The notes: a model not told the origin generated them from the letters alone. Shown: positions 23,323 through 27,804, numbered from the stretch's first letter. The stretch is DNA of 37,582 nt from an uncultured Planctomycetia bacterium (GCA_964624805.1 CAZUYM010000001.1:1-37582); one strand, 5' to 3'. A program made the numbers and translations.

Positions 23323-23393
23323 TTAATTCGACCATATTATTTACGCTTCTTGTTGTCGCGTAAATAATGGTCTCTAAAAAAAGGAGGAAGAAA

Positions 23394-24119
23394 ATGAGTT
23401 TGCTCGGAACGAAGGAAGATTTGAAGACACTGGTGGAGAAGCTGAACTTCAAGGAGAAAGTGGATAGGTCGCTTCAGCTGATAGATGAAGCTTACCGTAA
23501 ATTCGGTGACGGTCTTGTCGTGGCTAACAGCCTGGGAAAAGATTCCGTCCTGGTATGGGACCTTGCTAAAAAGGTAAGCCCCGACATAAGGGGTTTTATC
23601 GTGACGACGCGTTTCAAACCGAAAGAAACTATTGATCTCATGGATGATGAGGTCGCCAGGTATCCGGAGATGAAAATTTTTAAAAATGACGCGCCTGTAG
23701 CGGATAAACTTTATGAAACACAACCTGACAAATGTTGTGATATACTAAAGGTCGAGCCTACAAGACAGGCCATTGATGAAATGAAAGTCGATTGTTGGGT
23801 TACCGGTCTGCGTTGTACGGAAGGAAGAACGCGAACAGATTTCGAAGAGGTCGAGGAACGGGATGAGGGGCTGGTTAAACTCAATCCTATTCTCATCTGG
23901 AAAGAAAGGGAAGTCTGGCAGTATCTGGCTCTTTATGGAGTGAAGGTCAATCCTCTTTATAAGGAAGGATATCGTTCTCTTGGCTGCGCTCCGTGTTCGA
24001 AGATAACTACGGATGACAATGAGCGTGCCGGACGATGGATAGGGACAAGTAAATGCGGCGGCGAATGCGGCATACATACCAGGCCTCTTAAGAACAATAT
24101 GGATGGCGAGGGTATTTAA
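23394..24119 (+). CDS. cysH: Assimilatory adenylylsulfate (APS) reductase, Fe-S-containing CysH-family
   Basis: PAPS_reduct fold (ANSLGKDS). Cys pair KCCDILKVEP plus GCAPC (the CC...CxxC 4Fe-4S ligand pattern of APS reductases). C-terminal ECGIH catalytic motif. AGGAGG SD before the ATG at 23394. Confidence 0.85.
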   Translation: MSLLGTKEDLKTLVEKLNFKEKVDRSLQLIDEAYRKFGDGLVVANSLGKDSVLVWDLAKKVSPDIRGFIVTTRFKPKETIDLMDDEVARYPEMKIFKNDAPVADKLYETQPDKCCDILKVEPTRQAIDEMKVDCWVTGLRCTEGRTRTDFEEVEERDEGLVKLNPILIWKEREVWQYLALYGVKVNPLYKEGYRSLGCAPCSKITTDDNERAGRWIGTSKCGGECGIHTRPLKNNMDGEGI

Positions 24120-24133
24120 ACTCGGAGAAAAAA

Positions 24134-24607
24134 ATGGATTATCTGCCGGTAGCGGTAAAACTCAAAGGACGAAGAGTAATAGTTGTCGGCGGAGGAAAAG
24201 TGGCGCTGCGCAAGATCCAAAATTTTCTGGATGCGGGCGCCCTTGTTCATGTAGTGTCGCCTTTGCTTGAGACAGAGGTCAAAGGGCTTCACGAACGGGG
24301 AGAGATAACCTGGACGCCGCGGAAGGTATCCGATGAGGATATTTCTGACGCGGTACTTCTTGTATCCGCGACGGATGATACTGAGACCAACGAGAGGGTG
24401 AGCCGCCTGGCCAGAGAAAGAGGCATACCGGTCAACGTCGTTGACCAGCCCATCTTGAGCGATTTTATTTCTCCAGCGGTCATCCGTGCGGATAAAGCGC
24501 TGATCGCCGTATATACCGACGGCAAGGATCCGGTCCTATCCAGGGACCTCAAGGATTATTTAAAGGAAAAGTGGAATGATTTTCTTCTGTTTAGGGATAG
24601 ATCATAA
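24134..24607 (+). CDS. sirC: Short precorrin-2 dehydrogenase / siroheme synthase N-terminal-domain protein (SirC/CysG-N-like)
   Basis: VVGGGKVALRKIQNFLDAGALVHVVSP Rossmann motif. 157 aa. Confidence 0.75.
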   Translation: MDYLPVAVKLKGRRVIVVGGGKVALRKIQNFLDAGALVHVVSPLLETEVKGLHERGEITWTPRKVSDEDISDAVLLVSATDDTETNERVSRLARERGIPVNVVDQPILSDFISPAVIRADKALIAVYTDGKDPVLSRDLKDYLKEKWNDFLLFRDRS

Positions 24608-25586
24608 AAGTTCCCCCCTTCGCGACAGGGAAGAAGCGTTCAGGTCGAGGCGGAGAATAGAGAAGGCTTGTCTCGATGTAGGAGTCAGCGCGCGAGCGCT
24701 GTTTACCTGCAACAGGACGGAGATCTACGGAGAGGCCGCAGATGATGCCGCGGCTTTGGTCATCACCCGGCGCATATGTGCCGCTTTCCCGGATGTTTTC
24801 GAAAAGGCTTATATCAAGGCAGGCGACAGGGAAGTGTTCCGCCATGCCTTGAGGCTGGCCGCAGGTCTTGAATCACAGTTGATCGGAGAACGAGAGATCC
24901 TGGCGCAGCTTGATGCCTGGAACAGCACAAACGAATCCCCGGACATGTACGGTTTCTGGGCCGGTATACTGGGTATAGCCCGGGGTATTAGGGAACATTC
25001 CGGACTTGAGGGAGTTGTTTCAAATATCGCGGAGCTCATACGGGATGACCTGAGGAAGCGGATCTCTCCGCATGGACCCAGGTCGATAGCTGTCGTGGGC
25101 ACCGGAAAAATAGCGGAACTTTTTGCCGAGAACTCCAGATCTGACGAAGAGATCTTTTTCGTCGCTCGAAAAAGGCATAAAAAAGCAAGACGACTGGCCA
25201 GGAGATCCGGCGCTCAAGCAGTCCTGGTTAGCGATCTCCCGGAGATACTTTCAGTAGTTGACGCCGTCGTAAGCGCTACTTCCAGCCCCCACCGGGTGTT
25301 GAGTGAAAAAGATCTGGCGCATGTGACGGGAAAAAGAAAATCTGATCTTTACATATACGACCTTGCCGTACCCGGAGATGTGGCTCCCGGAGCAGGAGAC
25401 CTGGAGGGGGTAGTTTTGAACAGGCTTGATGGCCTGAAGACGGTTTTTGACGAACATAATGCATCGGCGGGCCGCTGTATCGCAAAAGCGGAAATGTTAG
25501 TTGAGAAGGCTATACTGAGAAGAGAAAGGGAAGAAAAAGAAAATGGAACTAAGAGTAGGGACACGTACCAGTCCGTTAGCGCTTAA
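24576..25586 (+). CDS. hemA: Glutamyl-tRNA reductase (short form)
   Basis: GIDHKSSPLRDRE, catalytic Cys in TCNRTEIY, NADPH loop VVGTGKIAE. 336 aa. Overlaps sirC by 32 nt and hemC by 44 nt. Confidence 0.85.
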   Translation: MIFFCLGIDHKSSPLRDREEAFRSRRRIEKACLDVGVSARALFTCNRTEIYGEAADDAAALVITRRICAAFPDVFEKAYIKAGDREVFRHALRLAAGLESQLIGEREILAQLDAWNSTNESPDMYGFWAGILGIARGIREHSGLEGVVSNIAELIRDDLRKRISPHGPRSIAVVGTGKIAELFAENSRSDEEIFFVARKRHKKARRLARRSGAQAVLVSDLPEILSVVDAVVSATSSPHRVLSEKDLAHVTGKRKSDLYIYDLAVPGDVAPGAGDLEGVVLNRLDGLKTVFDEHNASAGRCIAKAEMLVEKAILRREREEKENGTKSRDTYQSVSA

Positions 25587-26190
25587 GCAGATAGATGAAC
25601 TACGAGAAAAGGTCCCGGGAGTCGTATTCCGGACGGTCGGGATAGAAACAAGGGGAGACAAGGATAAGACGACCCCGCTTGACTCGGTTGAGAACGGCGA
25701 TTTTTTCACGCATGAAATTGAGCAGGCACTTTTGGCCGGCGAGATAGATGTCGCGGTGCACAGCGCGAAAGACCTGGAAGAAAATATACCGGAGGAGCTT
25801 GTAACGGCGGCTGTAACGGCATCGATAAGCAGGTTCGACTGTCTGGTCTCGGGAGGAGGCCAGACATTCTGTACTCTGCCAGGACAAGCGATAGTTGGCA
25901 CCAGCAGCAAGACAAGGAAAGACGGGGTCCTCGGATATCGCAATGACCTTGTCGTCCGGGATATCCGTGGGGATATAGATGAAAGGCTCGAGCTTCTCGA
26001 TGAGGGTGACTATGACGCTGTGATAGTGGCGCAGGCTGCTCTTATGCGCTTGGGGTACTATGAAAGAATGACCGGGGTGATCCCTTTCAGCATAATAGAG
26101 CCTAACCCTTTGCAGGGAAGTTTGGCGGTGCAGGTGCATAGGGAAAGGAAAGATCTCCAAGAAATATTCAGGTTAATAGATGGGAAATAA
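25543..26190 (+). CDS. hemC: Hydroxymethylbilane synthase domains 1-2 only (C-terminal domain 3 absent)
   Basis: LRVGTRTSPLALKQ, VHSAKD, IVGTSS, GDIDERL, YDAVIVAQAAL, QGSLAVQV align along E. coli HemC up to about residue 220. The ORF then stops at 215 aa. Confidence 0.8.
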   Translation: MELRVGTRTSPLALKQIDELREKVPGVVFRTVGIETRGDKDKTTPLDSVENGDFFTHEIEQALLAGEIDVAVHSAKDLEENIPEELVTAAVTASISRFDCLVSGGGQTFCTLPGQAIVGTSSKTRKDGVLGYRNDLVVRDIRGDIDERLELLDEGDYDAVIVAQAALMRLGYYERMTGVIPFSIIEPNPLQGSLAVQVHRERKDLQEIFRLIDGK

Positions 26191-26899
26191 ATCAGGAAAA
26201 GTATATATAGTCGGCGCGGGTCCCGGTGATCCGGAGCTGATAAGTGTTAAAGGCCTGAATGCCTTAAAGGCGGCGGACTGTATTCTTTATGATTTTCTGT
26301 CCGCGCCGGAACTTCTGTCGTACGCGAAAGAAGACGCCGAACAAATATGTGTGGGAAAATCCGACGGGTTACACCTGAAAGAGCAGGATGAGATCAACCG
26401 GCTGTTGTATGAAAAGGCGGATGAACATGAAAAAGTTGTACGGCTCAAAGGGGGTGATCCTTTTGTTTTCAGCAGGGGCGCTGAAGAAGCGGACTTCCTG
26501 GGATCTAAAGGGGTGGACGTAGAGGTCATCCCCGGCATAACTTCGGCGTTCGCGGGGCCGCTCGCCGCCGGCATTCCGCTCACCGTCAAGAACGAGGTGC
26601 AGTCGGTGGCGGTGGTAACGGGGCGAAAAAAAGACCCGGATGCCGAGATAGACGCTCCGAATGCGGGAACGCTTATATATCTTATGGCCGTAGCTAATAT
26701 AGCGAATGTGGTAAAAGCTTTGAGAAAAAGTGGCAGGGGCAATGATGTTCCATGCGCGTTCATCGAAAAAGTTACAAGGCCCGATCAGCGTGTAGTTGTG
26801 GCTACTGTAGGAACAGTAGAGGAAAAGGTAAAAACCGAGGATATAAGACCGCCGGCGGTATTTATTGTCGGAGAAACGGTAAATAAGATAAAGAGATGA
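26180..26899 (+). CDS. cobA: Uroporphyrinogen-III C-methyltransferase (SUMT; CobA/SirA)
   Basis: VYIVGAGPGDPELISVKG, VRLKGGDPFVF, VIPGITS. 239 aa, no fused HemD domain. Confidence 0.9.
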   Translation: MGNKSGKVYIVGAGPGDPELISVKGLNALKAADCILYDFLSAPELLSYAKEDAEQICVGKSDGLHLKEQDEINRLLYEKADEHEKVVRLKGGDPFVFSRGAEEADFLGSKGVDVEVIPGITSAFAGPLAAGIPLTVKNEVQSVAVVTGRKKDPDAEIDAPNAGTLIYLMAVANIANVVKALRKSGRGNDVPCAFIEKVTRPDQRVVVATVGTVEEKVKTEDIRPPAVFIVGETVNKIKR

Positions 26900-27804
26900 A
26901 AGTAGACGTAAAGAAACTTATATATCCGCTTTTTGTAAAAAAAGGCGTCGGTCTTAAGGAAGAGATCCCTCATCTGGAAGGCCTTTACAGGATGTCTCCC
27001 GATGTGTTCCTGGACGAGGTAAAAGAGCTGGAGGGTTTAGGGATAGAGAACATCCTTATATTCGGCATTCCCGAAGCGAAAGATCCTGAAGGAAGCGAAG
27101 CTTACTCGGAAGATAATCCCGTGAGCATAGCTGTAAAACTTTTAAAAGATAATAACATCAACGTTAAGGCCTTCACGGACGTTTGTCTTTGCGCGTATAC
27201 ATCGCATGGGCATTGCGGAATAACAGGGACGGACGGGGTTGAAATTGACAGCGAAAAAACACTGCGTGCCTTAAACCGGGTCGCGCTCCGGCATGCCGAA
27301 GCCGGAGCGGATTACGTAGCGCCGTCGGCCATGGCTAAAGGGCAGGTGGGAGCCATCAGGAAAGCTTTGGATGAGAACGGGTTCAATAAAGTTAAAGTAA
27401 TGGGATATTCCGCGAAGTTCGCCTCGAACGCGTACGGTCCTTTCCGGAACATAGCGGATTCGGCGCCTAGATCCGGCGACAGGTCCGGATATCAGCTTGA
27501 CCATACGGATAGAGAGACGGCTTTTGAAAAGATAAAAGAAGATGCCGCCCAGGGCGCGGATATAGTTATGGTGAAACCTGCTCTGTGGTATCTTGATATT
27601 ATAAAAGAGGCCGGGGCTATTGTTGAACTCCCACTGGCTGTCTACAATGTCAGCGGGGAGTATCACATGATAAGAGAAGGTGCTAAGAAAGAACTCTGGG
27701 ATGAACAAAGAATGGTGGAAGAGATAATGAATTCGTTTGAGAGGGCAGGAGCGGATCTCATAATAACATATCACGCGAAAGACATCGCTAACTGGGCTAA
27801 ATAG
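26896..27804 (+). CDS. hemB: Porphobilinogen synthase (Zn-type)
   Basis: Cys-rich Zn site DVCLCAYTSHGHCG. Schiff-base lysine context VMVKPAL. ATGA overlap with cobA. Confidence 0.9.
   Translation: MKVDVKKLIYPLFVKKGVGLKEEIPHLEGLYRMSPDVFLDEVKELEGLGIENILIFGIPEAKDPEGSEAYSEDNPVSIAVKLLKDNNINVKAFTDVCLCAYTSHGHCGITGTDGVEIDSEKTLRALNRVALRHAEAGADYVAPSAMAKGQVGAIRKALDENGFNKVKVMGYSAKFASNAYGPFRNIADSAPRSGDRSGYQLDHTDRETAFEKIKEDAAQGADIVMVKPALWYLDIIKEAGAIVELPLAVYNVSGEYHMIREGAKKELWDEQRMVEEIMNSFERAGADLIITYHAKDIANWAK

Follow-up and report, generated by a model that had tools for sequence, protein, structure and literature searches.

A HemC without the cofactor domain in an Omnitrophota siroheme operon, and its relatives in Chlamydiota

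The Cys-linked dipyrromethane of HemC (hydroxymethylbilane synthase, HMBS) is presented as universal in tetrapyrrole biosynthesis. It has been described as the mechanism of the enzyme and is regarded as essential in canonical forms (PMC7242693, PMC13564367), and all solved HMBS structures, about two dozen crystal structures, are of proteins of 310-389 amino acids (aa) in which domain 3, the C-terminal domain with the cofactor cysteine, is present. Here we analyse a hemC gene whose product stops short of that domain. It lies in a stretch of 37,582 nucleotides (GCA_964624805.1 CAZUYM010000001.1:1-37582, labelled uncultured Planctomycetia bacterium), the whole of which we call the window. The gene is intact, is the sole HemC of its cell, and encodes a complete catalytic cleft without the cofactor domain or a conserved cysteine. 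It belongs to a distinct and old family, made of domains 1-2 only, that is found in about half of the hemC-bearing Omnitrophota and in Chlamydiota. On balance we think that this short protein is probably the cell's HMBS, and that it would polymerise porphobilinogen (PBG) without a Cys-tethered dipyrromethane.

An open reading frame that ends at the hinge before domain 3

Residues 3-206 of the window HemC matched positions 1-206 of the 207-position PF01379 profile (E = 6e-56), and a Pfam search of all 215 aa gave no match to PF03900, the profile of domain 3. The full-length model TIGR00212 recognised the protein with 189.3 bits, above its cut-off of 164, over profile positions 1-215 of 293 only. 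Aligned to E. coli HemC the protein covers residues 4-222, its C-terminal ..RLIDGK corresponding to A217-H222, that is, to the hinge (218-221) preceding domain 3. An AlphaFold2 model made with 84 homologues (predicted local distance difference test score, pLDDT, 95.1; predicted template modelling score, pTM, 0.88) superimposed on the E. coli structures 1PDA/1AH5 with a template modelling (TM) score of 0.90 and a root-mean-square deviation of 1.6-1.9 A over 217 columns.

The TAA stop codon of hemC occupies 26188-26190, and the ATG of the next gene, cobA, lies at 26180 in the +1 frame relative to hemC, giving an overlap of 11 nt with the hemC end. The cobA N-terminus is complete, with a full TP_methylase start, and because this intact gene begins inside the end of hemC there is no space for a frameshifted domain 3. 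The initial annotation of this DNA had said as much, placing the end of HemC at 215 aa, before domain 3, and the start of a cobA with its own intact N-terminus 11 nt ahead of the hemC stop, and leaving no room for a frameshifted third domain; the reading frames and Pfam matches bear it out on each of these points.

The source genome is a metagenome-assembled genome (MAG) of Candidatus Omnitrophota, 1.44 Mb in 214 contigs and 91% complete. It contains exactly one PF01379 match, and no match to PF03900 at E <= 10. A domain-3 hidden Markov model (HMM) made for the lineage from canonical Omnitrophota HemC and the E. coli protein, run with --max and without filters, returned a best E of 0.9, which is noise, from 24,699 six-frame segments of the source genome. 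Nor was there any domain-3 coding potential downstream of hemC in any frame.

A family-wide truncation under purifying selection

Thirteen of 41 relatives carry hemC; in nine of these the gene is short and stops at the same column of the alignment. A scan in which each species was represented by a single genome yielded 167 related loci, and in the best 80 of these hemC was domain-3-less without exception (80/80), with no similarity to domain 3 near it. The best 120 database proteins were likewise all of 187-237 aa with PF01379 only, one of them encoded with the same operon on a 1.99-Mb contig; the databases annotate the short HemC proteins as 'hydroxymethylbilane synthase'. For the phylum as a whole we tallied 251 Omnitrophota species genomes, sampled evenly. 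PF01379 was present in 128, with PF03900 directly after it in the same open reading frame (ORF) in 68, and the 60 hemC-bearing genomes that have PF03900 nowhere include a two-contig assembly (G174). One genome in the collection has both forms, a canonical hemC (334-aa frame) and a domain-3-less one (230-aa frame), at G152:C45:15894-16763 and G152:C28:1736-2335.

Trees were built from the domains 1-2 region only, with quick searches. The 26 domain-3-bearing HemC sequences (25 from Omnitrophota, and E. coli) split from all 95 domain-3-less sequences with a Shimodaira-Hasegawa-like approximate likelihood-ratio test (SH-aLRT) support of 100, a topology that fits what may have been a single ancient loss of domain 3 followed by long diversification.

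Short HemC proteins extend beyond this phylum. NCBIfam holds a 241-position 'hydroxymethylbilane synthase' equivalog without domain 3 (NF002202/PRK01066), which we take to be a Chlamydia model. The window HemC matched its positions 20-229 with 162.8 bits, below the 251-bit cut-off. Chlamydial HemC proteins were fetched by searching with a chlamydial sequence, which returned the database HemC of C. felis, C. abortus, C. pneumoniae, C. avium and others (P0121-P0137); these are 234-258 aa long, have PF01379 only and come from chromosomes of 1.0-1.3 Mb. With the environmental Chlamydiota added, the Chlamydia proteins group with the domain-3-less HemC of Omnitrophota, and the canonical sequences split off (SH-aLRT 99). 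In C. felis the gene (L151:8001-8732) overlaps the end of a radA-like gene and stands outside any hem operon; three small unannotated ORFs 3' of it were considered as domain-3 analogues and found no support.

Truncation is thus a property of the whole family, and it is accompanied by purifying selection: the ratio of nonsynonymous to synonymous substitution rates (dN/dS) was 0.09-0.15 across nine informative pairs of short hemC genes. Across 95 aligned, non-identical sequences without domain 3, conservation was 100% at the equivalents of E. coli R11, S13, Q19, F62, S81, K83, D84, S128, S129, R132, R149, R155, R176, Q198 and G199. All 15, including the catalytic D84, are present in the window HemC, and they serve substrate and polypyrrole binding and catalysis in the studied enzymes (PMC3945110, PMC7242693). 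Other positions that are invariant in canonical HemC have been replaced, namely the hinge residues R101 and E102, and T154, while R131, mutation of which abolishes cofactor binding in E. coli (PMC3945110), is relaxed, being Arg in 67% of domain-3-less proteins and Thr in the window HemC. These positions are linked to domain 3 or to the cofactor, and the constraint on them has been lost or loosened.

Cysteine follows no pattern in the family. The window HemC has no equivalent of E. coli Cys242, and its two cysteines (C100 and C110) are not conserved; 28 of the 95 sequences have none at all, and in no alignment column does Cys exceed 28%. An alternative conserved Cys within domains 1-2 was accordingly rejected and, since more than a quarter of the members (28/95) lack cysteine, a thioether anchor inside the polypeptide is excluded for the family.

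The family has also acquired invariants of its own: E19 (Y22 in E. coli), D41 (I48), E50 (G57) and F54 (L61). The three acidic residues among them are invariant throughout the domain-3-less family, and canonical HemC does not conserve them. K42, D53 and E147 are further invariants in Omnitrophota, none of which belongs to the whole-family set. In E. coli the flexible loop of the active site includes positions 48 and 57, and simulations show Y22 touching the leaving product (PMC3945110). E19, D41, E50, D53 and E147 would lie on the lid loop of the active site and the wall of the cleft.

The short HemC occurs in four arrangements: alone with a stand-alone CobA, as in the window; alone with a CobA-HemD fusion; fused as HemC-HemD (about 450-560 aa); and fused as HemC-CobA-HemD (about 680-780 aa). 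In the fusions, natural examples of which lie at L071:5989-7404, L075:5989-7347, L070:5989-8061 and L107:844-3090, the partner starts 0-26 residues from the expected start of domain 3. The linker contains a Cys, in the motif TS(V/I)C(V/I), in seven of 11 HemC-HemD fusions and a Tyr in the other four; as a universal anchor the linker Cys was rejected on account of this variation. In two relatives the short HemC ORF runs on into other sequence (L065:5986-7044 and L079:4829-6004), an LMW (low-molecular-weight) phosphatase/ArsC-like domain in one and an HD domain in the other. These extensions were rejected as a hidden domain 3, and may be true fusions or the result of lost stop codons.

The operon around hemC and the missing HemD

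The gene belongs to a run of closely packed genes on one strand, the features of which are given in Table 1. The operon is a sulfur-assimilation unit joined to a pathway for siroheme, its cofactor, and the small sulfite/nitrite reductase at its end, which is conserved in relatives, is the likely consumer of the siroheme. We infer that the window HemC would supply the linear tetrapyrrole for it.

Table 1. Genes of the hemC operon in the window, in order of position (E values from Pfam profile matches)
Feature	Position	Strand	Basis
cysH (adenosine phosphosulfate/phosphoadenosine phosphosulfate, APS/PAPS, reductase), first operon gene	23367..24119	+	PF01507, E = 9e-39
sirC-like precorrin-2 dehydrogenase, 157 aa	24134..24607	+	PF13241 NAD_binding_7, E = 2.5e-32
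hemA (glutamyl-tRNA reductase, short 336-aa form)	24576..25586	+	GlutR_N + Shikimate_DH domains
hemC, domain-3-less form (215 aa; domains 1-2)	25543..26190	+	PF01379 match, PF03900 none
cobA (uroporphyrinogen-III C-methyltransferase), 239 aa, without HemD domain	26180..26899	+	PF00590 residues 7-213, E = 2e-52
hemB (porphobilinogen synthase), 302 aa, supplies HemC substrate	26896..27804	+	PF00490, E = 1.4e-115
hemL (glutamate-1-semialdehyde aminomutase), 409 aa	27806..29035	+	PF00202, E = 2.5e-66
small sulfite/nitrite reductase, 243 aa	29056..29787	+	NIR_SIR_ferr + NIR_SIR domains

The end of hemA overlaps the start of hemC by 44 nt, and in the loci examined the domain-3-less hemC of relatives always stands between hemA and cobA/hemD-hemB-hemL. 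The position of cobA is taken in relatives by CobA alone, by a CobA-HemD fusion or by a protein fused to HemC, and cysH recurs at its position with 78-82% identity. A hemA of about 335 aa upstream of a domain-3-less hemC is conserved in most loci. Two other enzymes of the window operon are shortened as well, HemA lacking the C-terminal dimerisation region and HemB having a short N-terminus, and relatives with this type of operon keep similar lengths for both (about 325-345 aa for hemA, about 300-315 aa for hemB). At one locus (L102:698-4475) the domain-3-less hemC operon lies directly 3' of cbiE, cbiL, cbiF, cbiG and cbiH. This adjacency suggests that short HemC feeds cobalamin synthesis too, and therefore some Omnitrophota appear to make cobalamin from it.

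HemD, the uroporphyrinogen III synthase (UroS), was not detectable in the stand-alone-CobA type of operon to which the window belongs; its sister types carry CobA-HemD. The sole Pfam HemD match in the source genome (contig C9, E = 0.016) proved to be a class-V aminotransferase, a lineage HemD HMM found no match in that genome, and no HemD was detected in five near-complete relatives (G174, in 2 contigs, G161, G090, G144 and G150). UroS is highly divergent, and some haem-making organisms have no annotated one (PMC13564367), so that the missing HemD may be a failure of detection; it is also possible that the short HemC system makes the III isomer by another route. Many Omnitrophota encode a protein of about 660-690 aa that matches the HemD profile weakly (E 0.002-0.07) over positions 95-146 (G028:C26:26838-27059, G026:C11:19954-20109, G227:C1:54678-54899 and others); this protein is probably unrelated to HemD since it is present with or without a true HemD.

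Mechanism, alternatives and comparison with known enzymes

Conversion of four PBG to hydroxymethylbilane is predicted for the short HemC from its context, as the sole hemC between hemA and cobA-hemB-hemL. We hold the following details less firmly than the overall reading of the protein as a synthase without a tether. A first pyrrole, or a short oligopyrrole, would act as a non-covalently bound primer occupying the sites of the canonical cofactor rings, where it could be held by the conserved Arg/Ser/Lys sites together with the family's acidic residues E19, D41 and E50 (and D53 and E147 in Omnitrophota), and new acidic residues on the lid loop might position the aminomethyl group of the primer, or the chain. 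The product would be either hydroxymethylbilane or an aminomethylbilane whose deamination takes place in that site, and the finished bilane may be handed directly to CobA or HemD, which sit at the place of domain 3 in the natural fusions; hemC and cobA are translationally coupled in the window, and relatives join HemC to HemD or CobA-HemD in one polypeptide. The relaxed R131, and a position 147 that varies among E, Q, D and K, would be easier to reconcile with a non-covalent arrangement that is not permanent than with a fixed cofactor. A bolder proposal strikes us as improbable, namely that the short HemC is a cofactor-independent polymerase, the first HMBS without a covalent dipyrromethane, and that the window type of operon also yields uroporphyrinogen III without a separate synthase, from HemC alone or with CobA.

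Several points weigh against a synthase without a tether. We know of no precedent for a cofactor-free or non-covalent HMBS mechanism. Without a tether and without domain 3, the enzyme would need some other way of limiting the chain to four rings. Of the residues proposed to hold the primer, E147 is not conserved in environmental Chlamydiota, and D53 is not conserved in Chlamydia. Canonical enzymes, moreover, are considered to depend on their Cys-linked dipyrromethane (PMC7242693, PMC13564367). A protein partner could possibly lie on a contig missing from the 91%-complete MAG, which is less likely across 60 genomes, or could possibly have diverged too far to be recognised.

Such a partner would anchor the cofactor in trans, docking on the cleft as a second protein that brings both the tethering Cys and a lid, the candidates being an unrecognisably diverged domain-3 analogue, CobA, HemD or another product of the operon. 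The translational coupling of hemC to cobA, the fusion of HemD or CobA-HemD in relatives exactly where domain 3 would start, and the linker Cys of seven HemC-HemD fusions would all suit this arrangement. However, the searches with PF03900 or the lineage HMM were blank in the source genome and in the 60 domain-3-less genomes, every operon gene is already assigned, and no candidate is universal, Type-B genomes such as the source genome having no HemD and the HemC-HemD loci no adjacent CobA; in four of the 11 fusions, too, the linker Cys gives way to Tyr. We consider a trans anchor unlikely. The initial annotation had offered a related idea, a split enzyme with domain 3 encoded elsewhere, which the same blank searches fail to support, and the second full-length hemC that it also considered was looked for and does not exist among the matches of a genome with a single PF01379 hit. 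Its third suggestion, a minimal synthase with another mode of cofactor attachment, points in the direction that is best supported here, with the restriction that another Cys in the protein is excluded by the Cys-free members. What could stay within that suggestion is a covalent anchor on a residue other than Cys in domains 1-2, through an ester to E19, D41 or E50 or an amine link to a Lys, holding either a cofactor permanently or a first pyrrole transiently. The three acidic residues are family-invariant and fall on the lid loop and cleft wall, where the loop and Y22 have known roles (PMC3945110). Such a linkage is nevertheless without precedent, E147 has Q/D/K/R variants and D53 lacks conservation in Chlamydia, and the relaxed R131 speaks against a permanently bound dipyrromethane, so that we think it quite unlikely.

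The protein might, on the other hand, not be an HMBS at all. Many Omnitrophota are small-celled and host-dependent. A PBG- or polypyrrole-binding protein with some other role, in cells that receive tetrapyrroles or siroheme from partners, would account for the missing cofactor domain, would sit easily with a source genome without detectable HemD, and would match genomes of only 1-2 Mb. It would leave unaccounted for the invariance of the catalytic Asp and of all substrate-binding residues, and the constant place of the gene in a hemA-hemB-hemL-cobA operon that is complete in all other respects and under the same selection. Those genomes contain no other hemC. A cell without the third step would have no reason to retain four to seven dedicated pathway genes, and we rate this explanation as very unlikely. 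Similar evidence disposes of the non-functional remnant that the initial annotation had listed: the short form is kept in 60 of 128 hemC-bearing genomes and in Chlamydia, with the low dN/dS and the fully invariant active site described above. The idea that faulty sequencing or assembly, or recent decay into a pseudogene, has cut short a normal hemC could draw on the fragmentation of the source MAG into 214 contigs. The stop is neither a chance nor an assembly event, because hemC ends at the same place in more than 100 independent genomes, including contigs of 1-2 Mb and closed Chlamydia chromosomes; cobA begins within the last codons of hemC, and the sequence downstream has no domain-3 coding potential in any frame. 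An artefact of this kind we discount almost entirely, and with it the assembly indel hiding a full-length HemC that had been raised before.

The preferred reading, of the short HemC as a synthase without a tether, would have consequences well beyond this operon. The short protein has no other HemC beside it in genomes with pathways for siroheme, cobalamin or haem. If it is active, the covalent cofactor is either dispensable or replaceable by something new, and the accepted mechanism changes; a 215-residue minimal polymerase would become available for engineering, and a step would be found that differs between Chlamydia, members of which can be cultured in host cells, and the host. The absence of HemD from the window type of operon bears in addition on the old problem of organisms without an annotated uroporphyrinogen III synthase. 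In the literature on HemC, on tetrapyrrole synthesis in Omnitrophota and on chlamydial HemC we found no paper that notes or explains a domain-3-less HemC, and no biochemical study of the chlamydial protein.

Three known enzymes or enzyme groups come closest to the window HemC. Plasmodium falciparum porphobilinogen deaminase (PBGD) is reportedly bifunctional, with UroS activity. The source genome resembles Plasmodium in having no annotated uroporphyrinogen III synthase, whereas Plasmodium PBGD, unlike the window HemC, has domain 3 and the cofactor; a later study reports it to be without cosynthase activity (bioRxiv 10.1101/2021.02.09.429727). The short HemC of Chlamydia is another parallel. Like the Omnitrophota family it has E19, D41, E50 and F54 (E. 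coli positions 22, 48, 57 and 61) and has lost R101/E102, but it differs in an N-terminal extension of about 20 aa with a mostly conserved Cys (DFCLG) that is absent in Omnitrophota. With the canonical enzymes (E. coli 1PDA, B. megaterium 4MLQ and human 3ECR) the window HemC shares the fold of domains 1-2 at about 33% identity, the catalytic Asp84, the Arg cluster, the Ser/Gln/Gly residues that bind pyrroles, and the place in the operon between hemA and hemD/cobA. It differs from them in being without the entire domain 3 (222-313 in E. coli), including the Cys242 cofactor turn and R232, and its family differs in the lack of a conserved cysteine, in the replacement of R101/E102 and T154 and the relaxation of R131, and in a lid loop remodelled to GDKDK..E..DFFT with new invariant acidic residues.

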